From Lytechinus pictus (taxonomy: Eukaryota), in contig NC_087251.1 of NCBI RefSeq assembly GCF_037042905.1, forward strand, positions 41,170,001 to 41,234,000: a stretch of 64,000 nucleotides of DNA, written 5' to 3'. Positions 8,394 through 59,221 of the stretch are shown in pieces. The notes under the pieces are model-generated. The model saw only the letters and a list, made by a program, of their open reading frames with translations, was not told the origin of the DNA and did no database searches. Positions within the stretch are counted from its first letter, which is position 1. Each line of letters starts with the position of its first letter. Both the position numbers and the translations under genes were made by a program.

Positions 8394-8861
<468 letters not shown>

Positions 8862-23540: not shown

Positions 23541-24163
23541 CTGAAATAAACAAGAAAGTTAAAAAGTTGTATCAATAGGACTACAAACAATGTGAGATAT
23601 AAAGGAGAATACATGATTTATTAACTGAAGTCATTATTCCACATATCTTTTCAAAAATGTGTGTCGAATATTGAAAAGACGCAGAGTAGATGTATGTTAC
23701 AATCTTCATAACAAAAACAAAAACAAAAAAACTCAGATTTAGATCAAATATGTTCCTGCATCATGGATAGGACATACCAGTAGGTATGATTTTTTTTTCA
23801 CTCTTTTCAGAAAAGTCATTCATGCATAATTTTTGCAAATAAAACAATCAATATTAATAGGGAACACTGTGGTACAGTAATCTTTGACAAAAAAATCAAA
23901 ATCATATCATAAAGTTGACTATGCTTATTAATTCACTTTTTCTTTGAAGTACTAAATGCAATTTATGCTTATTAATTCACTTTTTCTTTGAAGTACTAAA
24001 TGCAATTGAATCTTGACACTATCCTAAATAGACAAAAAACAAATGATGAAAGTAGTATAAGTAGAGGAATCTTATGATATATATAAGACTATACAAAGCT
24101 TACTTTAAAGTAGCTACATGTACTACAAACAATTGTATTGTTCAATATCTTCTGTATACTCAC

Positions 24164-30235: not shown

Positions 30236-31302
30236 CAGTGTTGAAAATACTTTTTATTTTTAGGGAGCCATTTTGAAAAAAAAATTTGAGAGCCATTTTT
30301 AAATTTACCAGAGCCATTTTCAGTTTTCGAGAGACATCCTTTTTTTTTCAATGATTCAGCGCATGGTTTCTCATCGCATTTGCCCTGCTTGTTTACAAAT
30401 TAATTTAATGTTTATTATTGTTTATTTAATTGCTATTTATTTTTTCTTCACTGTTAATTGTTAAATGATCATTAAATTTATTGTTGTTCACTGAATGTTT
30501 CTTTTTTGTATCTCGTGTATTTACTGGACATTCTAACACTAACTTTTACAATTTTGTCCATCAAATTGAATAGGATGAAATTTATCAAATTTGAACAGAA
30601 TTTGTACTTAGAGGAATCCTTTTCATAATTTTGAATTTATTTGATAAAAACTCACTTGAAAATTATTTTATGAAATATTGAATGCATCGCAGCCCGACAG
30701 CAAACATCAACATGCCCACTAATTCACAAGCTTCATGTAAGCAACGCCTACGCCAGCGCAGCTACTAGCACAGTTCACAGTCAACCATCACCGCAACACA
30801 GGCATGTATTAAAATGCATTAGTGCCAATACATGTATATATATTTGGGGTCGCCAAAAAATATGCTAAAATGAAAATATCTGTGATTTTATTCGGAGTTC
30901 ACAAGCTAATTTCGCACCAGTTTAGGATGGTATCTTCAAAATTCAATAAAAAAAAGCAAATTTTTCACTATCGAAGAAGTTACATCGAGACCCTGGTGCC
31001 GCGCATTTTGAAAATTAGTACCAGGGGATATCGGAGTCTGAAACTCGATACGTCGTTTTCTGAAACGCAGTGCCTGTGATTTTAAAAAAGTCCAGTCAGT
31101 TACATGTCAGAAAGCAACGATGCATGTAAGTAAGTAAGACTGTCTGGCATCTCTATGTGAATGGGAGACTGGACGTGCGTGGACGGGAGCAATTTTCAAG
31201 TTGGGAGTCACTCTGTACTTGGCAGTTTTAGGCAGTTGCGAGAGCGATCCAAAAGCAAATGAGAGCGGAATAGCTCTTCGCTCCCGTCTAATTTTTACGC
31301 TG
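30236..31302. mobile_element. hAT-like element inserted in a (CAT)n tract, 8-bp TSD ATCACCAT
   Basis: Imperfect TIR CAGTGTTGAAAAT/CAGCGTAAAAAT; TSD on both sides. Confidence 0.7.
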
Positions 31303-33459: not shown

Positions 33460-34032
33460 AGGACAAGACCACCCCAACAAAAGTTGATTTGAATAAAAAG
33501 AGAAAAATCCAATAAGCATAACACTGAAAATTTCATCAAAATCGGTTGTAAAATAAGAAAGTTATGACACTTTAAACTTTGCTCAATTTCATAAAAAACA
33601 GTTATATGCACAACCTCGTCGGTATGCAAATGAGGAGACTGATGACGTCATCCACTCACTATTTCTTTCGTATTTTATGAAATATTCTAATTTTCTCCTC
33701 ATTGTCAAGTGAAACAACAGTTAATTCCTCCCTGAACCTGTGGAATTAGCATTGTACTATATGGTTCAGTCAAGTTGGTCCTTATTGTCAAATATGTATA
33801 TTAAATAATTCAAACAATAAAAAACAAAAGAAATGAGTGAAGGACATCATCCACTGTCTCATTTGCATGTCACTGAGTTCTGCATATCACTGTTTTGTGA
33901 AAAATAAGCGAAACTTTAAAATGTCAAAACTTTCTAATTTTACATCCGATTTTGATGAAATTTTCAGCACTATGCTAGTTTGATTTTTCTCCATTTATTC
34001 AAATCAACATTTTTCTGGAGTGGACTTGACCT
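33460..34032. mobile_element. Kolobok-like MITE (TTAA TSD), family A
   Basis: TTAA|AGG...CCT|TTAA, long TIRs; paralogs at 37393, 48384, 51308. Confidence 0.8.
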
Positions 34033-35136
34033 TTAACAACTGAAAGTGGTGACATATTAAATAATTACATGTAGATATAATAGTATGACTAATATTATGG
34101 CCTGTAACAATATTGTAAAATAAATATATTTTTTAGACAATAACTCTGCCCCCAAACCGTATCATAAGAAAAGTCATAAAACCCTGGACATTATCTCTGA
34201 TACCCAAACTCACCAAAGGAATGGAAGGAAAGGGTCTAAAAAGTGTAATTCCTATCGAACTCCCCCATCCCATATCTATTATTCATTTAAATTTGGGGGC
34301 AATATTTATGAATCGCCTAAAATCAAGTCTTGAAGGAAGTTCACCCTGACAAAAAGCTTATTATAGAAATAGCAGAAAAAATGATAAAAATATATTGGTG
34401 TAGGGTTGAGGAAAATCCATAAAAGATTAAAAAGTAATTAGAACTTTTTTTTTAATTTGTGACGTCATATGCCAGCAGGCAGCATCTATATCGTTTAGCA
34501 AAAATATCAACGAAATGTCATTTTATCTAAAATTTGAAAACTTATGGATTTTTATTATAATTTCAGTACATCACAAATAATTTTGAACCATTAAAAATTG
34601 AAAATAAAGCTGCTCATATAAGGATCCCCAAGTCTACACCATGCCCCTTGTCTGTACATGTACGCAGATATACAAATAAAAGAAAACCCGCAATGACCAC
34701 AAGTTTTACACTATGCAATACATATTCCTTTAAAAATCTGACTTAATTTGATGGTAGAAAAATATTGAATTTCAGGCATTTCATGTGCTAACTCAAAATG
34801 CAGCCTTTCTCATCAAATCCCCAAATCATTTGTAAAGTGAATGAGTGCGCAGACATGGGGCACTATTTTTTTTTTCAATCTGAAAATGACTGGCCAAGGC
34901 TTTTTTCCAAGAATATCATATATTTCTCTAAAATCTTTATAAGATTCTTTACCAGGCCTCATAAAATGACACAATGAAGTCACACAAAATAGTGTCAGCA
35001 AACAGGCTGATTTGGGGGGAAAAAATGGCACAATTTCTGGATCAAGTTCAGCCTGCAAGAAAAAGTGATCTGAATTGATTTTCAACTCATATTTAGGATG
35101 TATGGTGGTGTGACCTTAATTCGCGGGTTGATTTAA

Positions 35137-35731: not shown

Positions 35732-36346
35732 TTAATTTTTGCACGGTCAAATATATCAATATCTAATTCATATCTTGAAAAACTGATAATCACCAACAGA
35801 AAAAGCAACCCAAAATTACTCAGTATGGTAATGGTATCGTAGAGGTGTTGTGGCTCAGTGGATAAGTCTTCGGACTTTGAACCACAAGGTCCGGGGTTCA
35901 AATCCCACCACAGGCAGGGTTGTAATAAAAAACGTTTTTTATTAAAAAAAACAAATCAAACGTTTTTTATTGTTTTAAAACGTTTTAAATCGTTTTAAAA
36001 CGTTTTTTTTCCAACGAACGATGAAATTTTCTGTAAATAAATTAAACTATACACTTAATACAGTACAATTTAAGCTGTTGATGTTTTAAATTCATTTTTT
36101 AGAGTAAGTAAAAGATAACTACATTTTTTGTTACTGAATTTCCAATAGAAAAGTTCATATTTTCCCCCAAATTACTAAATCATTGAAATTGAATGCAAAC
36201 AAGTAAGTTGACATTTTATAAGTTTATTCCTCATACATTTACATACATGTACATAATTTTGGGTCTCGTCAATCTAGGGGGTGAGAAGAATTCGCACAAT
36301 GTAAGAAAATAACATAATCTATAGACTATGTGCTTTCAAAGCTTAA

Positions 36347-36934
36347 AGGGATGGTCCGGGCTGAAAATATCTATAACTTAATAAATAGAGTAGAATTCAC
36401 TGAGCAAAATGACAAAAAATTTCATCAAAATCGAATAACAAAAACAAAGTTATTGAATTTCAAAGTTTAGCAATATTTTGTGAAAACAGTCGTCATGAAT
36501 ATTCATTAGATTAGGTGGGGAGATGATGTCACGTCCCCACTTGTTCTTTTGTATTTCATTATATCAAATTAGGATTATTCAAATTTTTTCCTCCAAGAAC
36601 TAGAAAAATTGGATTGACAACTGATTTAGTGCATTAGATATTCATTGCTGCAACTTATTTCATTATAAGGGAGACATATTATTCACACAAGTATGAAATA
36701 ATGAAAAAAAATATGACTTTATGTAATAACATAAGAAAAAGGAAAGTGGGGATGTGACATCATCAGCCCACCTAATGAATATTCATGACGACTGTTTTCA
36801 CAAAATGTTGCTAAACTTTAAACTTCAATAACTTTCTTATTTGTTATCCGAATTTGATGAAATTTTCGGCATTTTGCTCAGTGAATTCTACTCTATGTAT
36901 TAAGATATAAATATTTTCAGCCCGGACCATCCTT
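36347..36934. mobile_element. Kolobok-like MITE family C (AGGGATGGTCCGGGCTG)
   Basis: TTAA TSD; ~200-bp TIRs. Confidence 0.8.
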
Positions 36935-37392
36935 TTAATTTGATTTTAATCAATTTACCAATTTTAGTGCATGAAATACAAGTTTGGGTTTAAATTGATA
37001 AATAAACCCCCTGAACTGCTTATTTTTTAAATTGAGGAATTAAAGAATTTAATTTTGAGGAATTAAAAAATTTAAATATTTGTACAGTTTTTTGGTTAGT
37101 TTTGGTTTTTTTCAATCGTTTTTTAATGGAAATTATTGGCGATATTTTTCCAATCGTACAAATATTGATACAGATACGGATGTTGGCAAAAAATTCGCAT
37201 TGGCTTTATACATGAAAACACGTTATTGAGCAATTCGGGGTCTGACATGCACTTGTGTAATATCATAATCGCATACCCATGCATGCATCCCAAAAATAGT
37301 CTTGAACAATATGGCATGGCCCTGTCGTGCTTATGGATTTATCATAGAAATTTTAGGGGGCCATTACGGACCCCTTGGACTGTTAGGGTTAA

Positions 37393-37907
37393 AGATCAAG
37401 TCCACCCCAGAAAAATGTTGATTTCAATCTGTAGAGAAAATTCAAACAAGCATACATGTAATGCTGAAAGTTTCGTCGAAATCAGATATAAAATAAGTTA
37501 CATGTATGACATTGTAAAGTTTCGCTTTTATTCACAAAACAGTAATAACATCTCAGTGATATGCAAATGAGAGAGTTGATGATGTCCCTCACTCACTATT
37601 TCTTTTGTTTTTATTGTTTGAACAATACAATTTCAATTTTTTCAGATGACCTACTTGACTGAACCAAAAAATGTTAAAACAATGGTAGTTCCATATGTTC
37701 AGGGAAGAATTAAACTTTATTTCACATGACAATGAGAAAATAACGAAATACAAAATAAATAGTGAGTGATGTCATCAGTCCCCTTCATTTGCATACCGAC
37801 CAAGATGGGCATATAACTGTTTTGCAAAATTAAGCAAAACTTTATTATTTTGCATCTGATTTTGACGAAATTTTCAGCATACATTTTTCTTGTGGTGGAT
37901 TTGTCTT
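37393..37907. mobile_element. Kolobok-like MITE family A
   Basis: TTAA flanks; aligns to 33460 copy. Confidence 0.78.
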
Positions 37908-38612
37908 TTAAGGTTTGCTTGCTGACTATCTTATACTGAATTTAAGTACTTTTCTTCATATTTACAAAGCGCAAAGTTTCACCTGCTTTTGTGTGTACCT
38001 CAAGAATACAATGTCAGTTTTACAGTCTATTTGTAAAATATTATGCTTGTGCAACACTTCCATTTCATTCAAGTTCCATATTTGAGCTTATTTTAAAGCA
38101 CAACACTCATGTTTGTTATAATGAGAATATTCTTAATATAGATTGATGTGCACAATTGAACAAGAGGATTTCAAGGAACATGACAAAGGGATGGAGAAAG
38201 GGGGATAAGGGGGGAAAGAGAAAAAGAGTGGTGTCGAGAAAGAGATCTAGTTAGAAGAAAATAATGTGCCACTTAAGAAATAAAAGTATAAAAAAATATT
38301 CATCTAAAATCACATCCATGACCATGCATATTTATAACACACAAGTCTATGAGGTGTTTTAAAACACGTTTTTTTTGTAAAAAAAACGGGTGTTTTAAAA
38401 CGCGTTTTAAAACATGTTTTAAAACACACCGTTTAAAACGTGCCAACCCTGACCACAGCACTAGCGTCCTTTGGCAAGGTCTTTAATTTTATCTACATTT
38501 GCCACTCTCGGCACAGGTGTAGTAAATGGGTACCCGGTAGGAAGGAATTCCTTGAATGCTCGAAGCGCCCGATCAGGGTAGCCAGTAGCCGTGCTAAAGC
38601 TGGGGTAATAGT

Positions 38613-39066
38613 TAGACCAAAAGCTTCGGTCTCTGTTATGTTGGTTGTTCCGCTGAACTCCGGTGGCTCCACTCACCAAATACAGAGACCGAAGTTCTAG
38701 CGCGATCTGTACAGGGGACTCAATGGCCATATGTTTATGTACTTAAGTTTCGGATAAAACAGGGAATTGAAGTTGCGCGACAGCCGAAGTAAGTCACTGT
38801 TTTTTTTCCCTTTTAAGTTTATTTTTCCCCGTTTTGGTGCATTTCAGGCCAAAAGGGAATAATAATCTCTATTTTGGTACGATTCTTTTTCAATATTTTT
38901 ATGAAATAAAGACAAAAATCGATGAGCCCTGTCGGGGGGATTTTGCATTGTTCACCCCCTAATGGTGGCTGCACGATAGCGAGCCGTCTGTGTACGAGGA
39001 GAAATTTTTTTTTAAATGTTTAAAAACTCCTCAAAACAGACGGCTGCCAGCTGTCTACATGGTCTA
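38613..39066. mobile_element. AcademH-like non-autonomous element (TAGACCA...TGGTCTA, 10-bp TSD GGGTAATAGT)
   Basis: TSD at 38603-38612 and 40014-40023 after removing the hAT element. Confidence 0.7.
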
Positions 39067-39069
39067 GGG

Positions 39070-40008
39070 CAGGGGTTCTCAAACTACGGCCCGCGGGCCG
39101 GATCCGGCCCGCGGAGCTTCTCTATCCGGCCCGCGAGACGCTGCTGGGTTTTTTTATCACTTATAAGTCCCAATATTAAACATAGCTCAATATGATTACA
39201 TTGTGTATCCATGAAACCGTAATAAAAGTAATGGCAGTCAAATTAATTTGACTTTTAAACAAAGTTTAATGGAGTCTTTTCTGTCTTTTCTACATTCTAA
39301 TTAGATGACCAGCGCGGCGCTTCATTGAAAAAAAATTTTCACGTCAAACGTCGGATAACACGTTGCATTTTGAAAACATGTGCGCATACATTCCAACACG
39401 CGATCAATTTGGTTAAAACGTAAACTTAATTGCCGGTTCAAGTTCTGCGGATTTTCTCAGGGGTACATTAGTCATCATTAATAATAGCCAGGTCAAGATG
39501 GCATCAAATTCTGCAAATAAAGGAAAGGTGCATGCTGAAAATCGTGCTTTCCATAAAGAATGGACAGACAAGTATGCTTTCATTTTGCCGCAATCGAGTA
39601 CAAGGCCAATGTGTTGGCCAATCTACTTTGACAAAAAAAAATATTGATAGGCCTACTACAAAACATTATCTGTCTCTTAAATTCCAGGTATGTGTTAAAA
39701 TTGACGTATAGGTACAATCTACATTCCTTTTAACAAAGTACAACAATTTTGTTGTCTATATTGACTCTTGCTGTATTTTGAAATCTTTTCTGATATTGCC
39801 TGTGTTCCATATGAAACCGTAATTATTTTTTGGATTAAATTCTCCCAAAAATAAGGGCCAGATTGCCCCAGATAGCATCTAGGACCCCGGCCGCAAGGGT
39901 CTTCGCGCTTCGCGCACATTTTTTTCCAAAAAATCCACTCACCCTGGCCCTTTCAGGTTTATTTCGAGTCTCATCTGGCCCTTCAAAGAAAAAGTTTGAG
40001 AACCCCTG
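39070..40008 (+). mobile_element. hAT Buster/SPIN-like deleted element with transposase N-terminal remnant (39498-39647)
   Basis: TIR CAGGGGTTCTCAAACT; 8-bp TSD GTCTAGGG; peptide KVHAENRAFHKEWTDKYAF..RPMC. Confidence 0.88.
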
Positions 40009-40639
40009 GTCTAGGGTAATAGTATGCAGCGCTTAGAAACATTTGTATTAAGCGCTATATAAATGTTGCATATCATTATTATTATTATCCCTTTTACATG
40101 ATTTAGGCAAGATCTTTTAGATGGAAAGTAGACTAGAAATCTCGGGGGCAAAAATTTCTGTTTCTTTCACGGTACACGCACATAAATGGGACGCAATTCC
40201 TGGCTCCGTGGAGAGTAAGCACATGTTAGTAAATGAGTTTTACACTCTAACGTTAGGAGCCTCCTGCTTGGCTAGCTACACACACCCAACACCTTCTCTA
40301 TCCACTCATTCAATGAACAAGGTTATGATATAAATAATGTCTCTATCTAACTTCTAAGACAGGTTGTGTGTACTGACGATCAATTTTAGAAAGTCATTTG
40401 GAAAAATTTACAAGCGAAGTTTCATCAATTTTTAGTACAAAATGTTAGGAAATATTATAGAGACAAAATAGAAGATGATTATAACTATTAAATTCATATT
40501 TTTAGTGTAATCCAAAGACAAACAAGAAGGCTTCAAAAATATAAAGTAGGCCTATCCGAACACCCGACCCTCGGCCCTCCATCCATGATCCTATTCCTAA
40601 AGTAAAAAAAAGAGTTAGGCCTAACTTGACTTTGTTTAC

Positions 40640-40700
40640 CTCCTTGTCCTTGAACATGTTCATGGCCTTGACCTTGTGCTTGTGACAGTGTTGGCGGCAT
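40640..40700 (-). CDS. MTR: Methionine synthase coding exon 1 (MPPTLSQAQGQGHEHVQGQG)
   Basis: ATG at 40700; donor GAG|gtaaac; phase 1 matches exon 2; N-terminus resembles vertebrate MSPALQDLSQ. Confidence 0.75.
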
Positions 40701-41898
40701 GTCTCACAAGCTGATGACAATTCAAACCAGATATTATAAGATATATTAGCAATCGAATTTTGTTCTCTGTTGGCATTGGAGACGAAACAGACAGAGCTGG
40801 TGCTGTACTTCGTATCGAAACCTTTCTTCAACCGCGCCGGGTCTGTCGGGTTGGTATTCGTAAGCGCGATGGTTCAGCGCTGCCGCGAGTTCAAGAAGAG
40901 ACTGATTGCGAAAGATGTCACGTCTATGCAATATGCCCTATGTACGTCGAGCCGGACAAATCGTCCTACATAAGAATCGCCGTAACAAAAATACTCCCAG
41001 CTCAGATCGACCCGACCCATATATACTTCAGTTGCTGCCTCATGAAAAACTTATATTTCACTTAACTATATTCAAAATACTTCTCAGATCCGTGACTTCA
41101 AATTTGGATTTATAAAGAAAGGAACAGTAAAATTAAAGAAGGCTAGCTGGCGCCGGATTTTCTGAATCAATCGAAAATCAAACAAGCATATAAAAAATTC
41201 AATCAAAATCTGGGGCCCGTTTCATAAAGAGTTACAATATTGTTTTAACTTTGCCATTATGGCAACTACCATGGCAACAGGGCTCAGCAGCCAATAAAAA
41301 TCAAGGTTACCATGGTAGTTACCATAATGGCAAAGTTGCAACTCTTTATAAAACGTGCCCCAGGTGTAAAATAAGAAAGTCATAGCTATAGGTAAATGGA
41401 TTCAGGTTTTGGCAAGGGGGAGGAGCATATAAGCAGCCAGCGGCGACGAGTATAGTCTGCAGCACATACTTTGATCAACAATCTCTCCACGCATCGACGA
41501 GCACATAAACTTGCTGTGGCAATAGGCTTCCAGTACACGTCATGAATATAGGCTGCACATTCTGACCCTTATTCTAGTGAAGCTATAGGGTTGGCACAGC
41601 AGACTAAGCCTGCATGCAGTGGTGGCGGCGCCTTTAAAAAAAAACGTAATTATCACACCCGTAAAATCATCGCGGGACTGCCGATTCCGGCGTGACAGTG
41701 TGTCGTCTAAAATGCAATATTATTTGGTTTGGTGGAGACAAAAAGGGCGGAGACTCCGGCTTACACTCCCATAGGCCTATTGTGCTCCATGAGGATAAGT
41801 ATGACTGTGTCCACCAACAACATTTGGCATTTTTGGGGCATATAGTTTATTGACCATCAGTGCAATAACTATATATTTTGCCCATTCTAAAGTAAATT

Positions 41899-43448
41899 CA
41901 TAGACGGATCCAGGGGGCGAGGGGCCCGCCCCCCCCCCCCCCCCGCTGGTGGAGCAAAAAAAAGATTTTAAAAAAGGGGGGAAAGACAAAAAAGAGTAGG
42001 GAAAAATAGCAGAAAAAAGAGAAGGAAGACGAGTGAATAAAACAAAATGAGGAGAAGACTTGGAAAATAAACAAAATCTTTCATGTTATGATTTATGAAC
42101 ATAAACAAAATTTTGAGTGGCTGTCGCAAAAGGAACTCTTCCCTCAGAGAGGAATCTTTCATTTCACTTCGCGCTTGAATTGCCTGTTTTGGTTATGGGG
42201 TGATTATATATTTTGCTCAATATACAAAACATATTTCAGTTCGAAATCGAACTTTCATTATTTTGTTTGATTTACGAATTAATTTTAAAAAGTGCTTTGT
42301 AAACATGTTAGTTTTAAGGTCAATATTAACATTTGATTTGTCAGGTAGGCCCTATTATTTTCGTGTATTCCATAAAGTTCTCAAAATATCCATATTCACG
42401 GTCGACATATCAGCTACCGATGCACGCTCTCATTTTGATTGGTGAGTTATGTATAGGCCTCAATATTCTGAACTATATTTCCTACTAGGAAGATCATGAT
42501 TTACAAAACATGGACAGAGTGTCCCGTTTCTAGGTCTAAAATCTGAATTTTCTTCAGCTCGCGCTTCGCGCTAGTATCATTGTTTAGTTACATTCCTATC
42601 CCTTTCATGATTACAAAAAGTGCCTACCGTTGGCGGATGGCACAGCCCGCCGGCCCGTGCCCCCCCCCCCCCCCATGGAAGGCACAATTGAATTTTGTAA
42701 TGTAAAGATGCCGTTAAGACAGAAGTGTGCCCCACCCCCTTTGAAATTGAAGACTTTTTTTCTGCTTGTCAAATTATTTTGTGGACGAAATACCCTTATT
42801 AATAAAACCCTTTTTTTTGCTTGTCAAAGTTTTCCTGTAAAAAATGTGCCCCCTTTCGAAAGATCCTGGATCCGCCCCTGCTTAGAATGACCATTATTTT
42901 AGGTCGGAATGACAACAATTTTCAGCTTGCGCATCGCGCATGTTACAATATTTATCGTCTTCATGGCTATAACTCGGGGGCTAACTGCAAACAGTTCTTA
43001 TCAGGCCGGAACGTTTATTCAAAATTTCTGATCGCGCTTGGCCGCGCGTTCGCAGTAATTATCTAGTTATATACATACGCATCTTGTTCGCAGGATCACA
43101 AACATTGCCCAGAATGTTAAAATTTCAGGACCAAATAGGCCTACATGAAAGTTCAAAAACAAAAATTAGATCGCGCTTCACGTCCGCTCGCACTTTTTAA
43201 ATAGGGCTTATGAGATTAGTTTTATAACAATATAGCTAAGAAGTGACAAAAATCAACTCGGCCGATCGGGAAAAATCGGGGGAAATATGGGTGAAAATGA
43301 TTTCGGGCCCCACCCCCTACTGGCGAAAGCTTGATCCGCCCCTGTGACAAATCAGTATGCACGGACACTTTCAGTGCCCCACCCCCGATTAAAAAGCAGG
43401 GACTCCCAGTGTCCCCCCAGGAAAAGAAATCCTATAACTACGCCACTG
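41899..43448. mobile_element. Nested GC-rich-ended hAT-like MITEs between the MTR and STX5 5' ends
   Basis: GATCCGCCCCTG ends near 42880 and 43344; shares GCTCGCGCTTCGCGC motifs with 59222-60522. Confidence 0.65.
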
Positions 43449-43639
43449 ACATCGAATTATTGATTAAGGGTTATATTGTCTCTTTGGAAATAGTAGGGTC
43501 AATGATTGAAGAAAATTTTGGTAGCTTTGGATAAAAAGAAATGGAGGTAGAGGCCACATAGGCCTACTTTTCGTTTAGATCGAACGATGTATATTGAGTA
43601 AAGAGAGTTTGATGAGGACGAGTTATTAGGGAGTCTCCG

Positions 43640-44219
43640 TACTATCCCATGGTACACTAGCAGCTTGCTACGTCAACTAACTCGACACTGCATACCCACT
43701 ACCTAGCTATGCATGCACTCAGCTCAGCCAGCCGGTGCGGCCACTACCACTATACCGTACACAGACAGACTGTGCGTAATTACCGGTGGCAAGTTGTGAT
43801 GATTCAACGAAGCAAGATGTTTGTAGATCTATCCTTCTAACGGTTATATTATAGTTGATAGATTGTGGCACGAGAGTCGCATCTGCATTTATTGACAAAG
43901 TTATTTTTCCTCAGATTTCGTCTGTCACAGAATTGTTCAAGAAAAGAGGAGGCTTAATCAATAGTCATCAATTCAGAGCTGGTCTTTCGTGAATGACATT
44001 TCGTCATGAATGATGTGTGAAAAAACTAACTAACATCGTCATTGAACAAGAGTCTTGAGTCAAGGAAAGAGACGTTAATTTAACAACATTGAGTAAAGGT
44101 GGTTGGTGGTTTGATGCGATTGAGTTTCTGAAGAACTTCTTGATTGTTATCTTTAAGCAGACATCTGTTTCGTTACCGAGTCTGAGCTGAAACTTTGGAG
44201 AAATTGTGTAATGTAACGT
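43640..44219 (+). promoter_or_regulatory. Probable promoter and non-coding first exon of STX5
   Basis: Unique, CpG-richer sequence upstream of the acceptor at 45316; candidate donor gtaagt at 44220; boundaries uncertain. Confidence 0.4.
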
Positions 44220-44403
44220 GTAAGTTTAAGTTAACGTTTAACTTAATAACTGTACTCTGTAGTCAGACCAAAGGCTCCACTTTGACTTATTAGTATAGTA
44301 ATATTAATGGGGATGATAGTAGAATGTCAGAAATTGGTAAAGAATCCCCAGAAACAACAGTTATTCCTGTCCAGTAAAGCACCAACTGTGCCAGCTAACA
44401 GAC

Positions 44404-44631
44404 GGAAAGAGTTCCTCAGTCTTGCGACACTCCGACTGGCGACATCGCGACAGCCACCCAAAATAACGAGATTGTCGCGACTTCCGGTCCATTCACTTCT
44501 TGTTCCTCCATCATGTTTTTTTTTAAAGAAACACTAAAAAAAAAACGATAGAGGAACAGGAAGTGAATGAACCGGATGTCTCGACAATCTGATATTTTGG
44601 GTGGCTGCCTGTTGCAAGAGGAACTCTTTCC
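44404..44631. repeat. ~230-bp fold-back/MITE upstream of the first STX5 coding exon
   Basis: ~100-bp imperfect arms GGAAAGAGTTCCTC...GAGGAACTCTTTCC. Confidence 0.7.
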
Positions 44632-45340
44632 CAGTTGGGTCCTTTCTGATGGCCCCGTTCTTCGCAAAATTTAAATATTTTGGTCACTTGAAAATGGTAT
44701 CCTATTAATTATTGCCTAACATGTTTTCTCTGGGAAAAGTTGTAAAATTTACAAAATCACTGATCATCTATTTTGTTGTTTTGAGAAAATAAGGGCCTTG
44801 AAAATATGACCCTTTTTCATCTATGTCACATGAGTTGCCTATACACATCCACACCTGAATAATTAATGATTAGATGAGTGGGCTTCATTTGTAAGGATTT
44901 GTAATGTTATTGTTTAGTTTCTCTGGGCAGTTTTCGATGTGTAGAATCTAGACATTTCATTCCTGTTTTTTTTTTTGGGGGGGGTCCACATTTTGTGCTC
45001 TTTTCAAGAATGATTACCAGTCAAAATATTTCTATTTTGGGGGGCTTTTTACATCCTGCCTAAATCTGCATTTAATAGATCAGCTTTAAAATAGTGAATG
45101 GGGATTTTCTAGGGTTTTTTTTTTATTTCCAGAGCTCTTTTGGGGCAAAATCTGAGCTCCAGTATAATTTTTCTCCCTGATTTACATTTTGATACCCCCC
45201 CCCCTTGCCAGTTATCTTGATGCAAATACTTCTTTATTCAGAATTCAATCTTTCAAGGGCAATCAATTAGAGTTATTGAGTTGCGATATCACCAGTTGCA
45301 TTGTCTGTCTTCCAGATCTTGGCAATGCCATACACCACCA

Positions 45341-45562
45341 ATGTACAATAGACGTCGACACCCTTCAACTGAAGAAAACATTAGTGAGAGCAGCAGGTTT
45401 TCCGGTAACAGTGGGTACCACCAACGCAGCGGTTGGACGGTCACTACTCACATTCCACCAGAGACTCTTTCCACGGCAGGAGGAGTAGATACTGGCGATA
45501 TGACTTGCCGAGATCGCACCCAGGAGTTCCTCTCCACCATCAAGTCCATGCAGTCAAGACAA
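45341..45562 (+). CDS. STX5: Syntaxin-5 coding exon 1 (long start MYNRRRH at 45341; short start MTCRDRTQEF at 45500)
   Basis: RDRTxEF Sly1-binding N-peptide; acceptor before 45316; donor gtaagt at 45563. Confidence 0.93.
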
Positions 45563-46103
45563 GTAAGTATCTGGAGAGGGGGGGGGGTAAACTTTTCATT
45601 ATTCATACACGTGCCACTTTCACTTTCAGAAATCTAAAATTATTAGACAATGTGTAACATTCCATTTTATTTGATGACATCACAATGTACATCACATGTT
45701 AGTCATATTTCATAATTGTTTGAATCATGTAAAGGATATGTTGGGTCAGTTCTTAATGAAATTGTGAACATACAATTTTTTTTTCTTTGGGTATCAGAAA
45801 TGGGAATATTAAAAATCTTTCATGTTATATTAACTAAATACATGTAACTGATAACTTGAATGCTTAGATCAAATACAGCTTTACTATTTTAACTGTTATG
45901 CAGTGTATATAAACCTTCGTTAAATTCTTCTTAGATCATTTGTTAAAAAATATTTGTAGTGCTTGTCCCTCTTATCTTATAAAACTTTTATTAGAGGTTT
46001 AGTCTTTTTACACATGTTAAACTTTCTTTTGAAAGTGTACCCAAGTCTTGAAATAGAAATGATAAAAGAGAAGAAACAATAATAAGACATGTTTATTTTG
46101 CAG

Positions 46104-46174
46104 GGCAATGGAGTGACAGCTAACAAACTGAATGGAAAGCCACAACAATACACAGATTTCATGAGAATTGCAAA
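46104..46174 (+). CDS. STX5: STX5 coding exon 2
   Basis: cag|GGC...GCAAA|gtaagt; YTDFMRIAK. Confidence 0.92.
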
Positions 46175-46193
46175 GTAAGTTTCTAGGCATTAA

Positions 46194-46676
46194 AGGGAAA
46201 TCCCCCCCCCCAAAAAAAAAAAAAAAAATGTTTTTAGAAGAAAAAGGAATATCAGACAAGTAGATAGGCAAAAGTTTAAACAATATTGGACAAACAGTAA
46301 GAAAGCTATGAATTTTTTAAAAGTTGTAAAAATTGGTAATCACTTATACCCTTGGAGAATTCAAATTAGCCGTATGGTGATGTCATACTGGTGTAAGGCA
46401 AGGAGTACTTTTCCATTTACTCCAATACACAAAATGGCTTTAATTTTTTTTTCGAAGGTTTTACTCTAAATTATATTTTCCTTATGAGGACATTAAAACA
46501 ATTGATTACCTTGGTTGTATTCTGATTACTGCCCTAGGGCAATTGATAAAACCACACATCCGTGATAATATTTTAAAAGTCGGAACTTTCTTATTGCTTG
46601 TCTGCTTTCACCATTCTATTTACTTATGTTTTTTTCCCTCTCGCACAACTTATTATGACCAAGGTTAGCTTCCCCA
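46194..46676. mobile_element. Kolobok-like MITE family B, degenerate
   Basis: Aligns to 35137-35731. Confidence 0.7.
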
Positions 46677-47227
46677 TAATCATTTTCATGTGCAGAGTTG
46701 ACCAAATAGTCTGTAGAATATATCTGCCCCTGCTCGCAAAGAACATGAGGGATTGCTAATTTGCTAAATTTCACCTACTCTTTCTTTATTCATATTTTAT
46801 ATTGTTATGTACATACATGTATGTCATTTTGTTATATTGCATTATGTAATGTTTATATTGATTTGTAAAATATTTTCTAATATACTTTTAAGGAGGTGTG
46901 AAATGAAAAAGAATTGAATTTAAATCTAAATTATATCAAATTCAGTTTCTCTCCACCCTTTTGCATGTATTTTCATGCCCATTTAAGATAGAAGTATGTT
47001 TTATTATTAAGAGACCACTATAAATAATTCAATTCAATAGAAAATAAACAAACAAAATTGTTTCCATGTACTAAATATCAAATTCATCTTAGTTTTGAAT
47101 GATGTTTTTTTGCATGTTTTTAATCTTATCTTCAAATTTAAAATTGACTTTACATGTTAATGTATAAATACAGATGTTTATGAACATTGCACCGATATTC
47201 TTTCATATTTTTTTACTTCCATTTTAG

Positions 47228-47283
47228 AAAAATTGGCAAGGATCTGAGCAATACATTCTCAAAACTTGAAAAATTAACACTAT
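47228..47283 (+). CDS. STX5: STX5 coding exon 3 (KIGKDLSNTFSKLEKLTL)
   Basis: Habc motif; AG/GT. Confidence 0.95.
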
Positions 47284-47779
47284 GTAAGTAGATTCTTTCA
47301 TTGTATTTAATGTGGATATTACTCTTAAGGTAGTGCAATCCCCTTATGATGTTTTTTACTATATTTATCAATCTAATTTTGCTTAAAAACATCTCAATAA
47401 GTTCTGAGAGAGTGTGTGGCTTGACACTGGTACTCTTGAATGCAACTTTTTTTCCTGAGGGTTGTAGCCCAAAGTCACATCACTGAGGGCATTACCGAAT
47501 TAAAGTTTGGCCAGTCTGTCTTGCAACCAGGTATGTTGGTTTATATCTGTCATCTTTGCTGAAAGGCACTCTCCACCTTAAATCTTACATCTTGAAATGG
47601 ATGCTATGGACTACCTCATGCAATGTCATGTGATTGTATGATTTCATTGATATAAATGCTCATATCTCCTATGCATCCATGGTTACTAGTTAGTACAAAA
47701 ACTAATATATGTTACAATACCAGGCATATTTGAATTTGATTAACCCTCTTTTTCACTTTGCTTTTCATCTTTTAATCAG

Positions 47780-47892
47780 TGGCCAAAAGGAAATCATTAT
47801 TTGATGATAAATCTGTAGAGATTCAAGAACTCACATACATCATCAAACAGGATATCAATAGTCTAAACAAACAAATTAGCAAATTACAGCAG
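47780..47892 (+). CDS. STX5: STX5 coding exon 4 (AKRKSLFDDKSVEIQELTYIIKQDI)
   Basis: Highly conserved motif; AG/GT. Confidence 0.96.
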
Positions 47893-48383
47893 GTAAGAAA
47901 ACTACATTATTCAATTTCAATTTAGTCACTGGAGCAGAGTCTAATTTTCAACTTAAAAAGTTGGCATTTGTTCCAAAAGCATTTCAATCCTCCACCCCTA
48001 ATACACAAAGTTACTGGCAACACATGTAGGTCTAGCCTTCAAATCAATTCTGACATACAAGAATTCATAATTCATGAGATTTGCAAGCACCTTAACGCAT
48101 ATTATATTTTCTTTTACAAATTTGTTTTATCATGTGCGATTGTGAACTTGATATCTCAAGAACTACATGTAGTTTATGAACATTTATGAAACATAATTAG
48201 GTCCAATATTAGTGACACTAAAGATAGGAGTCATACGGCTCTTGAATCAGTGAAATTAGCTTGTGAATACCACATGTATCTCAAGAACCAGTCATTAGAT
48301 TGTCACAAACTCCAGCTATGTCCAATATGAATGACCCACAATCTTTTTGTATTTTCGTTACATCCTTACTCCAGTAATATTAA

Positions 48384-48975
48384 AGGTCAAGTCCACCACA
48401 GAAAAATGTTGATTTGAATCAATAGAGAAAAATCAGAAAAGCATAATGCTGACAATTTCTTCAAAATTGGATGTAAAATAAGAAAGTTGTGAAATTTTAA
48501 AGTTTTGCTTATTTTTCACAAAATAGTTATATGCACAATTTTGTCACATGCAAATGAAAGAATCGATGATGTCCCTCACTCACTATTTGTTTTTTATTGT
48601 TTGAATTATACAATATTTCAATTTTTACAGATTTGACAATAAGGACCAACTTGACTTCAGGAACCATAAAATGTTAATGGCAATTCCACATGTTCAGGGC
48701 AAAATAAAACTTTGTTTCTCAGGACAGTGAGGAGAAAATTAGAATATTTCATGTAATAAAATACAAAAGAAATAGTGAGTGAGTGATGTCAGCAGTTCCC
48801 TCATTTGCATATCAACCGGGATGTGCATAAAACTATTTTGTGAAATTAAGCAAAACTTAAAAATGTCATAACTTTCTTATTTTACATCCGATTTTGATGA
48901 AATTTTCAGTGTTGTTGTGTGTTGGATTTTTCTCTTTTAATTCAAATCAACTTTTTGCCAGGGTGGACTTGACCT
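48384..48975. mobile_element. Kolobok-like MITE family A
   Basis: TTAA flanks; TIR AGGTCAAGTCCACC. Confidence 0.8.
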
Positions 48976-49274
48976 TTAAGAACTAGTTTATGAACATTTA
49001 TGAAACATAATTAGGTCCAATATTAGTGACACTCATGATTGTTTTGTGTAATAATGCTCATTAATCAGTGAAATTAGCTTGGGAATACCACATATATCTC
49101 AAGAACCAGTGATTAGATTGTCACAAACTTCAGCTATGTCCAATATGAATGACCCACAGTCATTTTGTATTTTAGTTACTTTTTTGGTTCTTACTCCAGT
49201 AAAGTAGCTAATGATCTAGATTGTATGTTCTTATGTTGTTTACCTATTTTGTATGTTTTATTTTTTTCTTTCAG

Positions 49275-49403
49275 CATGTCAAAGGAAGTTCACAAAATGG
49301 CCGTCACATGCAATCACATTCGAATACTGTGGTTCTCTCGCTTCAGTCTCGATTAGCCAACATGTCAAATTCATTCAAAAATGTTCTAGAAGTTAGAACT
49401 CAG
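49275..49403 (+). CDS. STX5: STX5 coding exon 5 (HSNTVVLSLQSRLANMSNSFKNVLEVRTQ)
   Basis: Conserved motif; AG/GT. Confidence 0.96.
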
Positions 49404-49649: not shown

Positions 49650-50004
49650 CAGGGTGCTACATAACTTTTTAGAAGCTTTTGCCCAGTTGGGCAAGTAAAT
49701 AGTTGTAATATACTTGCCCGAAAATCTATTTCACTTGCCCAAAAAATCATGAAAAAAAGTTTTACCTCGTCAAAAGAAAGTACATGTATTTTGGTTTTAT
49801 AAACCATTGACCCTTTTCTCTCTTTTGACATGAACTGATCTACCTTGTTATTGCATTTCTTTTTCCAAAGTGATTTTATCTTGCCTGCCATGACCAAAAT
49901 TAGGGTCAATATCGTATCATATTGCCCAAATCGAGCAAGTAGTTTTGGTCTTTACTTCAAAACACTTGCCCGGGCAATCAGGCAAGTGCTTATGTAGCAC
50001 CCTG
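49650..50004. mobile_element. MITE with TIR CAGGGTGCTACATAA
   Basis: 15-bp TIR; CTTGCCC subterminal repeats; TSD not preserved. Confidence 0.7.
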
Positions 50005-50280: not shown

Positions 50281-50290
50281 GTAAGCTTAA

Positions 50291-51957: not shown

Positions 51958-52110
51958 GTCAGTCAGTTCCCATTAAGTACATTCCTTGACTGTTGACCTC
52001 TCTCTACTTCCTTTATCAAGTTCAGATAAATGTTTGTTTACTGGTACGATGAAAGAGAAAGGATACATGTAAAATCAGAAAATATGTTGCTACGGCTTGA
52101 TAGTCTTGTG

Positions 52111-53131: not shown

Positions 53132-55903
53132 TGTTTGACAGCTCGTCCCCTTCCGGGATTGCTTTACGTCGCTGTTCTTACTCAGCCAGTGCCTTGGATT
53201 TCTATTGAAGCAATTTAATTTCAATTTCAAAAATAACCTTTGATATGAGACACTGGATAACTCTCTTACACATTGTTCATGTGCAACAGTGCCGATGAAT
53301 GTGAAATTGAAGGGGTATCAGGATGTCATTCACTTGTTTAACTCGTTGCCTATCAGAACTGGTTGGTTGCTGCATGAGATCCCTAGGAAGGATTCAGTTG
53401 GACTGAAAGCCATACAGCGTTGAAGGATGAAATACAGGAGCGACTGATTACTAATCCTATATATAGTCAAGTACACAGACATTCATTACATCAAGCAAGT
53501 TCCTTAGAAATGTAGTTTGCATGTATACTAGCTAAAACAAACCTTGTCATTCCATGCACTTAAATGTGCATGAACTTAAGATTGTTTAAGTATATTATAA
53601 CGTGAAATTAATTTCCAACCACAAATCTTTGCTGGCTATTGTTCTATGCCTGATCTATCTCTAGTGTAGGAGATGTAAATGGGCAGTATTACTTTTACCA
53701 TCATACACAGTGAGGGTATTGAAGTAGTATAGTTTGTCCATGATAATCGTTGATATTTGATACTGTAGTCCTCATGCATGTATGACATAATCTCATAGCG
53801 CCCTCCCTCAGAGGATATCTGAATATGCGTAAACAGAGTTGTCAGAGATGCGCCAGCTGCAGATCACCAATGCACGCAAGGCAATGGCTTCAGCCTCTAA
53901 GATGGCGGAGTGATGACATCAATGCAAGGTCTATTATTTAAGAAACTGTCAGAGCATGGGTTTGCTTGTTCTGCTATAATAACATGGTAATTTGATAATA
54001 TGATTTACTGATAATATACATTCAAGTCTCATTTAGGTCCAGTATGATATATTTTTTCCTTGCCTACTATTAATGCTGTAATTATACACTGTTATACTAT
54101 GATAGTATGAGTTTTCACCTGTTCTAAATTATTTTACCACCTTATTGTGCTGTTTCAAGTCTCATTGAGGTCTAGTATAACTTTTTATATAAAATAATAT
54201 AGTTTAAATAGTAAAATAGTTTTCCCTTGAAAACTTATCAATACTGTAATAAGAAACAGTCATAGCATAAGTTCCCAGGTTTTGTTAGAAATGTTTTTGC
54301 CATAATATGCTGAATGAGGTCAATAGGACAAAACATGAGTTTTCATGTTTTGCAATGAAGGACAATATTTGTCTTTATTCTAAATTAACTACAAAACTGT
54401 GGTGATAAATAAATAACATATTTCAAGATTTAGAATTAGCACCAAATCATCTCCAGTGATATCTGAAGGTTTGTCTGGGTTTTTCTTGGTTTCTCAGTTT
54501 TGATATATTACTTTTTATTCCAATCTCTAATTATGCTCTCAAGTAGTCCTTACCAATGAAAATTGATGTCAGTGATACCTTTACTCAGTGTAACAAATAA
54601 TAATATAAACCTTTAATTTGTTCAATATTGTTTGAACTCAAAATTTATTCATCATATTTACTTGCTGGTTTGCTGCTTGTTTTAAGACTTTCTAAGTAAT
54701 AATACGAGGTGATCTTAATATATACTTCTTGATCTTAATTTGGAGTAGAATACATCATTGTCATTTGTATGTGATTCAGCCGGAGATGTCAATAGTTATT
54801 GTTTGATGATTATGTTTACATGTTTTGAAATTGTTTCATCTCATTACCTCCCCCTCCCCCCCCCCCTCATTCCTTTCAGGAAAGTGATCTTAAGTTGCCG
54901 CCTTATGACCCAGACTTGGATGTGTGTATGAAAGAACCCTTTTTCTAAATAGTTGTATTTTTGTTTGACAGAATTGTTTCAATCAGGGTCTGTGCATATA
55001 GACTACTCCCCCCCCCCCCCCCCATTCACATGATAAGCATACATTAATGTATGGAAGAGTATTGAATGTCACTGTAGTCTGTTTAGAACAATAAAATTAC
55101 TAGGAACTCATTTCATTGTAAAAATATTGTAACTTTTTAAAATTTTGACAATTCTATGCTCCTACTTTTCCTTTTTTTTCTTAAAGCTTAAAAGCACAGA
55201 TGATTGACATATTGTGTCATTTAACTTACAGTTATGTATGGATTGATATGTTATACACATATTAACAGAGGCAGATCCAGTAGTTTAAAAATGAGTGGCA
55301 CACATTGAATTTATCAAAGGACAAAAGAGGGAGTGGGACATATCTACATCCATTTTCTCTAATGTATTAAGATAGTATTTTCACTTAATTTATTATATTC
55401 AGAAAAAGGAGAGGATGGATGCATTCTTAGCCCTTGCATAAATCTGCCGCTGTTATAATCAAAGAGATAGTTGATTTATATTGTAGTTTATGGTTTGAAA
55501 TGTATTACTAGTGCTTAGAAGTGTGCATTATTGTTTGTGTGTTTGCCTTAAATTCAAGAACTGAATTACTTGCAATACAAGTAGTTACTTGTATCAATAA
55601 TGTATAGATAAATATTGCTGAAGATATGGGAGGAGGTCATAGTTCTGAAAGCTTCCATGTTTGTGTAGTTGTGTCGTGTGTGAAATTATTGATGTTCTTA
55701 ACTAAAAAATAATTCAAATAATATTAAAAATCTTATACACATACATGTACATAGGAAAGTGCAAACAAATGATAAGAGCATTATTTTGTTTATAGTTTAA
55801 ATCCGGTTTTGCTCCCTTGGAACGAGGGCATCCAGATTCACCTCACACTTGTGCCAATCACCCTTGTGTTTTTATCCATTACTAGTTTATATGAGGTGCT
55901 TAA

Positions 55904-56454: not shown

Positions 56455-59221
56455 TTAAGACATTCTCTCTATTACTTCCTACCAAATGCTCACTTTATTC
56501 AAAAATAAATCCCTTGCTAATGCTTATCAATTTAAAAACTGAGTGGAAAGTGGTAATGCAAGCTTCATCCTAGAATTGGGTTTTAAACCTTGGCCGGCTC
56601 ATTTCAACTGTACGTGCTGCATGTTTTTTGTTTTTATCTATCTTAGCTCAAGTTTGATCATCTTTTTTTATGCCTTTATTATTCACTATTTACACACACA
56701 AAAAAGATGCAGTTGGGTCTATTGTTAAGTCTATTTATGTGTTCCCATGATAATAGGGTGAACTATCTGCACAAATACCTAAGGGTATTAATGAAGGCCT
56801 TCAGTTGGTGAAAACTCCCTTCATTCGGGATTCAAGCAAGCAAAGTAATTGTTTCAGCACTTTAATGGCTGTCTATTAAACCAGAATATGCATCAGATCT
56901 CCCAACAAAATTTTGATGTAATTTGTTATGTTGAATGCTGTTCATTATATTGCATGTTTTATTTGAAATTTCAGTGGTCATGCATCTATTCATTTTGTGA
57001 ACATCTTACTTCAAGGAATTATGGAATCATGAAAAGAAGAATATTATGTTTGTATTTAATTAGTAAATTTATTCTGTTGTAAATAAGAGTTTCATTATTT
57101 TTCAAATATCTTAATATTTGTTTATGAATTAATTATTTCATAGCATTCATTATTGAATTGTAGTCAAATTGTATTTAAAGGATTATTTGTATTTTATAAT
57201 CATTGATGATATGCTGTGACATAAGCATAGCAGTAACATTCCACTGAAAAATCCAGGTTAATAGGGAAGCCTCAAAGTCGAGAAGCAACACCCCCCCCCC
57301 CCCCATCACCAACACCAACACTGGAGAGCCCTTTGCTTTGATTAAGTGCCATGCAGTTTGTCTTTATTCTCTCATATTGCATATTCAGATCTCTCTCTCT
57401 CTCTATATATATATATGCTTACATTTTTCATGAGAAGAGAAGCCCCCATTAAAAAGGGGAGACTGTACACATGTATGTTTGTATGCACATTCTTTAGTTC
57501 AAGGGCCTGAAAGGTCCTTTTTGCAGCATAATCTAAGATGTGCATCATTTTCAGCTTTTGCTGTCATTCTTTGAAAGCTCATGATTACCATTCTCTTTTA
57601 TTATGATGAAACGATTTCAAAAAATCATTCTTAAAGTTATTGTAATGTTCATGTAGCATAAAAAAAAAATCAAATAGAAATACATAATATGGTGTATTTT
57701 TGAAAGAGCTGTTTAAGGTAACTCCAATAATTTTATCTTGCTTTGATCATATTGACATTGTTTGCATTCTTGCCTGTGTAGATTATATTTCATTACAATG
57801 TACATGATTTATATGTTTGTTTACAGTATATCTGCATCAGTGATATTTCTGTAAGCTCATCCTTTGTTTAAGTGTACTAATCAACATTTCTTCTTGTGCT
57901 TTGTTTCAATTTGATCATGAATGTTATTATGTTTTGTTTTTTCATCCGGTATAAAATGCACATGCAAAATGTACATGGGGCGTGATTGAAATGGGTTAGA
58001 AATAATGAAATTCTGTAACCCTTTGGAAACAGGATCGCCCGAATCATTACATGTAACATGAGATAGCTGCATGGCATTCCTTAATACTCTTAATCATAAT
58101 CTTCATTTTTGTATTAACCATTAGGCTATTTTTAATAGGTAGTTTATAATTGTTTGCTTTTTGCACTTGTATAAATTAATCCTTTAAATCTATATAAAAA
58201 GTAGTAAGTATTTCACATTAGCAGCAAATTTAGGGTTTAATATTCATGTTCTCCCTAATTGGGGATAACTGGAAAATCTTAATCTATAATCTTATAATAT
58301 TTAAGTCATGTTTTCTTGGTTCCTTGGGATGTATTAACTTTTTTTTTTTAAAGTTCTGTTTTTCAGCTAAATCTCCTTGAACCCAACACAATTTCAGACT
58401 GCGGTTGTTGCTTGATTTGCAAGCTTGATCTTTGCAAAAGCTTATTAATTCATAGAAGATGTTCACCTTGTTGAAGAAGTAAGAATGGTTGATATTTTGA
58501 GCTATAAAGTGGATCACATATTTTGTAATGAATATTTTCTGTTGTCTTGGATACCATGCTAACGATTTTAAATACTACCATATAGTATAGAATCATAGTT
58601 ACATGTATTCAAATCTGTAAGGCTCCTCCTTAGAGATGTTACATGTATTGAAACAAGAAGAGCTATTAAGCCTGAATGGGAACTATTTCTAATGCGCTGT
58701 TAGTCATTTTCAAATCTACATAATGACAAAAAGAAGGTGATTAATTGAATTTATGAAATACATGCCTTACGAGTGAATCTGTGATAGGATCGATATTTAA
58801 ATCCCTCCCCAGCTTATTATGTTCTTTCATTTTCCTCATTTGTTAATTATTGACTTATTTTTGTTATTATTTTATATTCTTTACCAGTATAATGATGCCA
58901 TAACGAGTATAATTCACCTCAAAATATTTTTTTATTAATACCGAACAGTTGTCCGATTGTGATGTATTTCGATAATGGATGTGTTCTCCGCTACATTTCT
59001 TGAAATGCATCTTGCATGTTATATTCTTTGTGAGATGTATTACTTATGTAAAAAAAAATAATGGTAAATTGTAAATTGATGGCTTCTATGATGTATTTAC
59101 ACCTTATGTTAATATTTTAGTGTAATATATGTGAAACTCAAATTATAAAATATCTTGACCACTATCATAAAAAACGTTCTGAATGCCTTATTTCATTTGC
59201 AATGCTGAATGTTGTTGGAAT

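Follow-up and report, generated by a model that had tools for sequence, protein, structure and literature searches.

The 5-bp footprints of Sleeping Beauty and mariner elements and the 6-bp footprint of Minos consist of the duplicated TA plus terminal bases of the element, of which three or four from one end are retained. Excision of Tc1 from its TA target in C. elegans leaves 3' CA overhangs (van Schendel et al. 2015, PMC4490562). Among germ-line Tc1 revertants, obtained from a screen selective for in-frame events (PMC4490562), the TACATGTA junction (class L) accounted for 24 of 103 cases in the wild type (PMC4490562 Supplementary Data 3), 10 of 36 in lig-4 and 3 of 39 in polq-1 (PMC4490562). 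In the Chinese lancelet, a passage in a supplement describes 6-bp polymorphic indels as 'excessively more common than expected' (Huang et al. 2014, PMC4284660). The titles and abstract openings returned by a literature search, mostly from non-subscription sources, contained no account of TACATGTA as a genome-wide scar; the retrieved parts of PMC13148408 gave repair-pathway context with no footprint sequence, and those of PMC5111886 held nothing relevant to the scar.

Here we report that the L. pictus genome keeps gaining the six letters that turn TA into TACATGTA, even within a working reading frame, and that these gains are most likely the exit scars of transposons.

Abundance of the word

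An exact word search found 19 copies of TACATGTA in the 64,000-nt stretch of L. pictus DNA analysed here (the window). The sequence-only reading had counted at least 18 by eye, all at exact coordinates, and had overlooked a 19th at 30829. Its statement that the word far exceeds the 2-3 copies predicted from composition also held: Markov models of orders 0-4 gave expectations of 1.5-3.5, and 100 dinucleotide shuffles of the window gave a mean of 1.38 and a maximum of 4, with 0/100 reaching 19. In the window, TACATGTA was also more frequent than any other of the 256 TANNNNTA words. Genome-wide, the word occurred 224,046 times, an excess over expectation of ~195,000; the control, the reversed word (85,448), overlaps TACATGTA and is hence not independent. 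Twenty spaced 10-kb stretches contained 43 copies, with at least one in 15 of the 20.

Related words were compared in indel and word spectra based on 296 kb of the genome, of which 264 kb was unselected. The 4-bp words TACATA/TATGTA showed no excess (246 vs 276 expected), and the 5-bp TACAGTA was barely enriched (49 vs 40 expected). TACACTA (206 vs 35) was rejected as a 3-base scar, its excess being one microsatellite locus with 179 copies (L019). The count of TACANTGTA was 58,741 vs 47,576 for its control.

Fourteen of the 19 window sites had no paralog in the 296 kb compared. They are listed below; no strand is assigned to any feature in this text.

366..373: TACATGTA, exact word, no paralog in 296 kb
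10319..10326: TACATGTA, exact word, no paralog in 296 kb
24115..24122: TACATGTA, exact word, no paralog in 296 kb
30829..30836: TACATGTA, overlooked by eye, exact word, no paralog in 296 kb
34066..34073: TACATGTA, exact word, no paralog in 296 kb
34655..34662: TACATGTA, exact word, no paralog in 296 kb
45839..45846: TACATGTA, contigs of runs X10 and X13 cross without a 6-bp gap
46814..46821: TACATGTA, exact word, no paralog in 296 kb
49781..49788: TACATGTA, exact word, no paralog in 296 kb
52064..52071: TACATGTA, exact word, no paralog in 296 kb
55742..55749: TACATGTA, contigs of runs X10 and X13 cross without a 6-bp gap
58048..58055: TACATGTA, 15 letters of the window missing, at a position within 57464-58098, from a contig of related organism A
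58600..58607: TACATGTA, crossed without a 6-bp gap by X10, X13 and organism A (X3)
58640..58647: TACATGTA, crossed without a 6-bp gap by X10, X13 and organism A (X3)

The words at 58600 and 58640 appear to be old or chance occurrences. In four sequencing runs compared over 39200-59100, no element-filled site was seen among the 12 indel rows listed; the tables, swamped by repeats, ran to a further 387 rows.

Derived gains in repeats and in a transposase frame

The remaining five sites lie in repeated DNA, together with the features that serve for comparison.

35915..38451: non-autonomous element of 2,537 bp, which we take to be hAT-like, CAGGG..CCCTG ends, 8-bp target duplication, three scars
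36244..36251: TACATGTA in the hAT-like element, 10/10 paralogs cover the site, no empty copy among them
37453..37460: TACATGTA, derived 6-bp gain at TA, from paralog and subfamily comparison
48444..48445: empty TA paralog of 37453
37499..37506: TACATGTA, derived gain adjoining an earlier 4-bp deletion, from comparison with older copies
33563..33564: empty TA paralog of 37499
48384..48975: TTAA-flanked palindromic MITE, source of empty paralogs, also at 33456-34036, 37389-37880 and 51356-51666
48164..48171: TACATGTA with an empty paralog, a gain or a loss, two copies compared
48984..48985: empty TA paralog of 48164
25188..27103: non-autonomous inverted-repeat element, Tc1/mariner-type MITE, TA|CAGTG..CACTG|TA ends
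26655..26662: TACATGTA within this CA..TG MITE, opposite arm empty, aligned at 76% identity with 25740-25610
25675..25676: empty TA paralog of 26655

All three empty paralogs named from the sequence, for 37453, 37499 and 48164, were present at their coordinates. The claim built on them, that the word is a derived insertion at TA, stood for 37453 and 37499, which lie in copies of repeat families. The pair 48164/48981 is a two-copy duplication with a left anchor of ~6 bp and, like the additional case found at 26655, an empty paralog without an outgroup. At 37453, the word was missing from 5/5 other arms in the window and from 17/17 older-subfamily copies, and was present, intact or modified further, in 11/11 young copies. 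At 37499, the 17 older copies comprised four with the ancestral state, one with the deletion only, ten with the exact word and two with a decayed word. The possibility raised earlier that the word is ancestral in the repeat consensus thus fails at both sites, as judged from the older copies.

The hAT-like element was found in 11 copies of 96-100% identity; since 36244, 37453 and 37499 lie in one element with near-identical copies, they were inherited from the master copy. Seven six-bp clusters were absent from at least 30% of covering copies: four were exact TACATGTA, one was TACCAGTA, one, read by eye, was a decayed TGCATGTA, and one was unrelated. Also present were by-products such as would be expected, namely TACATTGTA, TACGGTA and four bases added to an existing scar. 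Two exact events occurred in the young copies, namely a perfect tandem duplication in L006, where the word at 36244 is doubled, and a gain adjoining a 5-of-6 match in L004; both could have originated by slippage. They correspond to 2 events per 185 distinct substitutions (95% range 1 in 26 to 1 in 764), which is compatible with the ~1 in 520 required for a steady state. No clean CATGTA deletion was observed among the 11 young copies.

A Tc1 copy (L059) carries a private TACATGTA gain that is derived relative to the empty site, lies at a TA that becomes duplicated, and adds His-Val in frame to the transposase. The stereotyped, frame-preserving insertion at TA that had been proposed is thereby shown in a coding sequence. 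Because L059 is 99.8% like its sister copies (2 mismatches in 1,198 bp), the process that makes the scars is recent. Its flanks contain no template for the insert. Two of three long-frame Tc1 copies were scar-free (L060 has none in its aligned part, and L061 has a 9-bp duplication). The change from TA to TACATGTA produced a stop or frameshift in 0/640 codon contexts in any frame; proteins can thus acquire two extra residues through it, which is what L059 shows.

Possible sources of the scar

In our view, TACATGTA is most probably a footprint left when cut-and-paste elements that target TA, akin to Tc1, mariner and pogo, are excised. The attribution to TA-targeting transposons made from the sequence finds a direct parallel in the documented C. 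elegans Tc1 product, which is identical (PMC4490562). A CA..TG-ended element would enter TA and duplicate it, as observed for the resident families; the transposase would cut two bases inside each 5' end, leaving the flanks with 3' CA overhangs as in C. elegans Tc1; and the host would join the untrimmed overhangs and fill them in to give TA-CA-TG-TA. Germ-line excision would be frequent enough to keep ~195,000 scars against decay, probably with several CA-ended families as the source over time. Joined in this 2+2 fashion, GG-ended elements would yield TAGGCCTA and CC-ended ones TACCGGTA. The word TAGGCCTA (66,473 genome-wide) looks like a sister scar; 0/3 covered sites had a clean empty paralog, and one shifted 6-bp gap was seen at 40546.

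The bases added in TACATGTA equal the CA..TG termini of two resident families, a match of two bases only and weakly specific. The resident Tc1 (DD34E; L029-L032) is young and intact, with a paired HTH (PF01498, E 7e-19) and a DDE domain (PF13358, E 8e-20) of 34-residue spacing by hand count, inverted repeats of ~200 bp and a TA duplication. The MITE at 25188..27103 matches at 18/18 terminal bases and has relatives in L009 and L021; it is a filled site of a family that could leave TACATGTA, and CAGTG-type MITE ends number 3,288 genome-wide vs 17 for the control. Scars are more than fifty-fold commoner than the resident ends found. Pogo yielded no CA..TG donor among three pairs compared: PF03184 gave 76 matches, and none of these pairs shows CA..TG ends (one is TA|TGG..CCA|TA, one has ambiguous ends, and one shares the ORF only, with a CCG-type end in L056). 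The CCG-type end pattern showed no excess (231 vs 279 control), and the mariner profile PF01359 gave no match, its controls being equally silent.

Mirror symmetry of the scar flanks was weak. A at -3 (87/156 half-sites vs 33%, p 6e-9) is a signal of target choice. A at -1 was found in 58/156 scar half-sites (background 35%) vs 85/100 Tc1 ends and 75/100 MITE ends, both counted by hand (Fisher p 2e-14 and 3e-9, respectively), and TA at -2,-1 in 63,135/448,092 scar half-sites (14.1%; background 9.7%) vs 48/100 and 65/100. Scar flanks therefore match the target preference of neither the young Tc1 nor the CAGTG-ended MITE. Since both prefer TATA-type targets and scars do not, the two families explain at most 8-11% of scars, provided that repair ignores flanks. 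The earlier interpretation is partly supported: CA..TG residents exist, but no single highly active element could be linked to the scars. The CA..TG families found were this Tc1 and this MITE, and neither has the scar-like flanks expected of the main donor. No locus with filled, empty and scarred states was seen over 39200-59100, where the comparison was swamped by repeats.

There is a modest chance that an undescribed source accounts for the majority of the scars and has a target signature of its own (A at -3, C at -2, no A at -1); it could be a hit-and-run element or insertion driven by a transposase. Such a source would have left almost no resident copies. It would be a permanent mutagen that inserts two stop-free codons about once in every 100-500 substitutions, and it would explain why lancelets and comparable marine invertebrates show a peak of 6-bp indels.

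Local templated copying (slippage, polymerase-theta joining or hairpin correction), which would make the palindrome from its neighbours with no transposon visit, seems improbable. CA stands directly 5' of the word in 29/156 half-sites vs 10.4 expected and TACA precedes it in 9/124 vs 0.7, L006 and L004 are a duplication and a near-duplication, and the legend of PMC4490562 Supplementary Figure 3 models the 24/103 outcome as a templated insert. However, 53/78 distinct contexts have neither a left CA nor a right TG, no adjacent template exists at L059, 26655 or 48164, one fixed insert in unrelated flanks requires an outside source, and the worm CA is still element-derived.

We give an equally small probability to a different, Minos-like element that has self-complementary CATG termini and is cut with a stagger of four bases, and whose sticky ends would re-ligate exactly into a single product. 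A single product does dominate, with no excess of 4-bp forms and little of 5-bp or 7-bp forms, and both CA-ended families found misfit the scar flanks. Against it, the DNA scanned (264 kb of it unselected) contained no repeat end starting TA|CATG, any 2+2 join gives a palindrome anyway, and TA-flanked GG-ended (L017) and CCG-ended (L056) elements exist alongside GGCC and CCGG words. That TACATGTA is a selected binding site or ancestral motif lost from paralogs is very improbable: the literature entries seen for the whole word come from work on oomycetes and a fungus and deal with promoter motifs or transcription factors, and two window sites are common to organism A, but gains lie inside junk repeats on terminal branches and in a transposase frame, clean CATGTA deletions are lacking among 11 copies, and the polarised sites already contradict it.

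Comparison with known footprints

It is generally difficult to count how often DNA transposons excise. Under the excision-footprint reading, fixed scars spaced at roughly one in 4 kb would form a record that can be dated site by site, in which each end type has its own word, and would show germ-line transposition far exceeding what resident copies suggest.

The footprint is of a known kind; its scale and uniformity are unusual. TACAGTA, a footprint of the Sleeping Beauty/mariner type, is barely enriched here (49 vs 40). The Chinese lancelet is alike in its 6-bp indel peak, for which the passages seen of PMC4284660 give neither sequence nor cause, and the scar process is a checkable candidate cause for that excess. 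C. elegans Tc1 is alike in its TA target, in the CA overhangs that we infer here and in the identical TACATGTA junction. However, in the worm this junction is attributed to polymerase theta and stands among 26 products from a single selected locus (PMC4490562), whereas in L. pictus a single product dominates at ~195,000 sites with no flank template needed. The worm spectrum is varied, and 4-bp and 5-bp forms show little or no excess in L. pictus, which hints that ends are joined more uniformly in its germ line than in that of the worm.

Abundance of the proposed scar word and related words

Domain matches placed two sets of exons in the window, and the genome containing it is 811.7 Mb. The B12-binding-domain exons presumably belong to methionine synthase.
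8391-8861, minus strand: B12-binding domain exons
45221-45637, strand not given: syntaxin-5 N-terminus exons

The sequence-only reading had reported TACATGTA, the word produced when six bases are gained at TA, at 18 places and in excess over background. All 18 were confirmed and one more was found at 30829, so that the window holds 19 copies compared with 1.38 ± 1.14 (maximum 4) in 100 shuffles. In a 264-kb sample, made up of the window and 20 stretches of 10 kb spaced apart, 62 copies were found against 9.6 expected under a Markov model of order 2; scaled to the genome, which contains 224,046 copies, this gives ~29,500 expected and an excess of ~195,000. In its load of this word, the window resembles the genome at large.

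Two sister words were also enriched: TAGGCCTA, with 9 copies in the window against 0.48 by shuffle (66,473 genome-wide against 3,425 for the control), and TACCGGTA, with 8 against 1.1 expected.
9754, 33445, 39648, 40547, 40616, 41772, 43136, 43559, 61132, no strand given: TAGGCCTA

TA-flanked elements with GG ends (locus L017) and CCG ends (locus L056) are present in the genome, and TAGGCCTA is a candidate scar of GG-ended elements. The inverted-repeat element at L017:3638-5902 has TA-GGC..GCC-TA ends and is a possible donor type for TAGGCCTA. The L056 element (minus strand, ~800-2640) is pogo-like: it combines BrkDBD, HTH_Tnp_Tc5, and DDE_1 domains, its right end before TA is of the CCG type, and it fits both TACCGGTA and a TACGGTA gain in locus L033. 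A pogo-like family (L053/L054 and L062-L065, 98% identical) has TA-TGG..CCA-TA ends and a Cys-rich C-terminal tail.

Among other features, a dispersed repeat, which contains tandem units of 163/192 bp, occupies 1114-2128, 11701-12211, 22304-23272, 27618-27847, and 29310-30069, with 22304-22533 being 100% identical to 27618-27847. An open frame at 61457-61900 encodes a protein-like His/Ser/Asn-rich stretch with no Pfam match, and locus L019 contains a tandem array with 179 TACACTA copies.

Direction and age of the gains

Sites 37453 and 37499 share one TTAA-flanked MITE, which in turn sits within a hAT-like element of 2,537 bp whose 11 copies are 96-100% identical. This non-autonomous element (35915-38451) is a composite of nested MITEs with 8-bp target duplications in the 11 copies; one copy (L035) has an extra 398-bp TTAA insertion. 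Among older copies (the first 17 of 29 matches at ~86%), the six bases at 37453 were absent from all 17, while at 37499 four were ancestral, one had only an adjacent 4-bp deletion, ten carried the exact word, and two a decayed form. Based on these states, both sites are gains, at two different time depths. Empty paralogs had been proposed as the mark of insertion, which the older copies polarise at these two sites. The remaining pair, 48164/48981, belongs to a direct duplication of 210 bp (87%; 48170-48377 and 48984-49202) flanking a TTAA MITE at the junction; since no third copy was found in the 296 kb examined, its two copies do not give direction. A fourth case is 26655, whose counterpart in the other arm of the element that carries it is empty; the word at 36244 is carried by 10/10 paralogs, and no paralog was found in the 296 kb for 14 of the 19 sites.

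We counted 185 distinct substitutions among the 11 young hAT-like copies. Five gains at TA were also seen: two of TACATG, one each of TACATTG and TACGG, and one of 4 bp, shared by two copies, on the 37453 scar; there was no clean CATGTA deletion. Both exact TACATG events could be slippage. A tally, over all repeats in the sequence examined, of 3-12 bp indel clusters covered by at least four alignments yielded 151, of which 39 were missing from at least 30% of covering alignments. Seven of these were six-bp clusters (four exact TACATGTA, one TACCAGTA, one decayed form, and one unrelated), as were four at a 50% threshold (three exact TACATGTA), a small sample weighted to the family chosen for analysis.

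Of 729 candidates, 150 scored in a search with Pfam DDE_3; nearly all came from one young Tc1 family whose commonest open frame was 364 residues. The predicted frame-preserving gain was checked on three copies with longer frames (365-367) and was borne out in L059 (366), which carries TACATG inserted at TA with unrelated flanks; the other two of the three fetched had no scar. Relative to copy L029, L059 has 2 mismatches over 1,198 bp plus one insertion, across which its protein reads MPRHHLHVSETD (344 residues vs 342). The process is therefore very recent, independent of local template, and able to enter a reading frame harmlessly. Scar insertion adds a stop in 0/640 codon contexts; in contrast, TAGGCCTA insertion gives one in one frame of three.

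Contigs from two sequencing runs (X10 and X13) cross 45839, 55742, 58600, and 58640 and show no 6-bp gap there, and thus these copies of the word are not assembly errors; no filled or empty allele could be discerned in the contig alignments. A contig of a related organism that covers 58462-59100 has 31 gap letters (net +25), and at most 3 of the window's letters are missing from it; 58600 and 58640 therefore either predate the split from that organism or are chance words.

Candidate donors and flanks of the proposed scars

Tc1 is intact, with 99.3-99.8% identity among three of four fetched copies and their inverted halves, the fourth being set apart by an internal repeat. The family is very young and numbers well over 100 copies that are nearly identical, many of them forming inverted pairs separated by 1-3 kb; locus L032 is a head-to-head dimer with a right end on either side. 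Its TA-CAC..GTG-TA ends numbered 323 (the pattern excluded T at -8). A MITE family with TA-CAG..CTG-TA ends (3,288 counted) has a window copy at 25188-27103, whose right end is adjoined by TACTGTA, a 5-bp-type footprint word, at 27104-27110. With 2-base overhangs, either family could leave TA-CA-TG-TA on excision.

By hand count of the first 100 ends listed, A at -1 occurred in 85/100 Tc1 and 75/100 MITE ends, and TA at -2,-1 in 48/100 and 65/100. Scars had A at -1 in 58/156 half-sites, a background level, and TA at -2,-1 in 14.1% genome-wide vs 9.7% background, preferring instead A at -3 (87/156) and C at -2 (48/156); some of these 78 contexts are chance words, and a few are homologous. If repair ignores flanks, the two families supply at most 8-11% of scars. 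Either other families dominate or the repair outcome depends on the flank. Resident donors have the end type that the proposal of a highly active CA..TG element calls for; scar flanks resemble neither family, and the scar is not assigned to either.

TACA directly preceded the scar in 9/124 half-sites vs 0.7 (36244, 46814, and 55742 in the window; L034:1023 elsewhere), which suggests that scarred sites are hit again or repaired in two steps.

Comparison with the Tc1 footprint

The excess of TACATGTA, its gain at TA, recency, and frame preservation are established here, as is the presence of donors with the right end type. We infer an origin by excision, in which a TA element would exit with a 2-base stagger and its flanks would be joined untrimmed. 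Family-X polymerases can bridge non-matching 3' overhangs. No literature on TACATGTA as a genome-wide scar was found in a search that covered few subscription papers. Lancelet 6-bp indels have been termed excessively common, in passages that give no cause (PMC4284660). Worm somatic empty sites are described as nearly all made by end joining (PMC13148408), and C. elegans Tc1 excision as leaving 3' CA overhangs (PMC4490562). Among worm germ-line Tc1 revertants, the TACATGTA junction made up 24/103 in wild type, 10/36 in lig-4, and 3/39 in polq-1, with 26 different products in wild type (PMC4490562). The scar probably works like this Tc1 footprint, the junction being identical, although in C. elegans it is one of 26 wild-type products.
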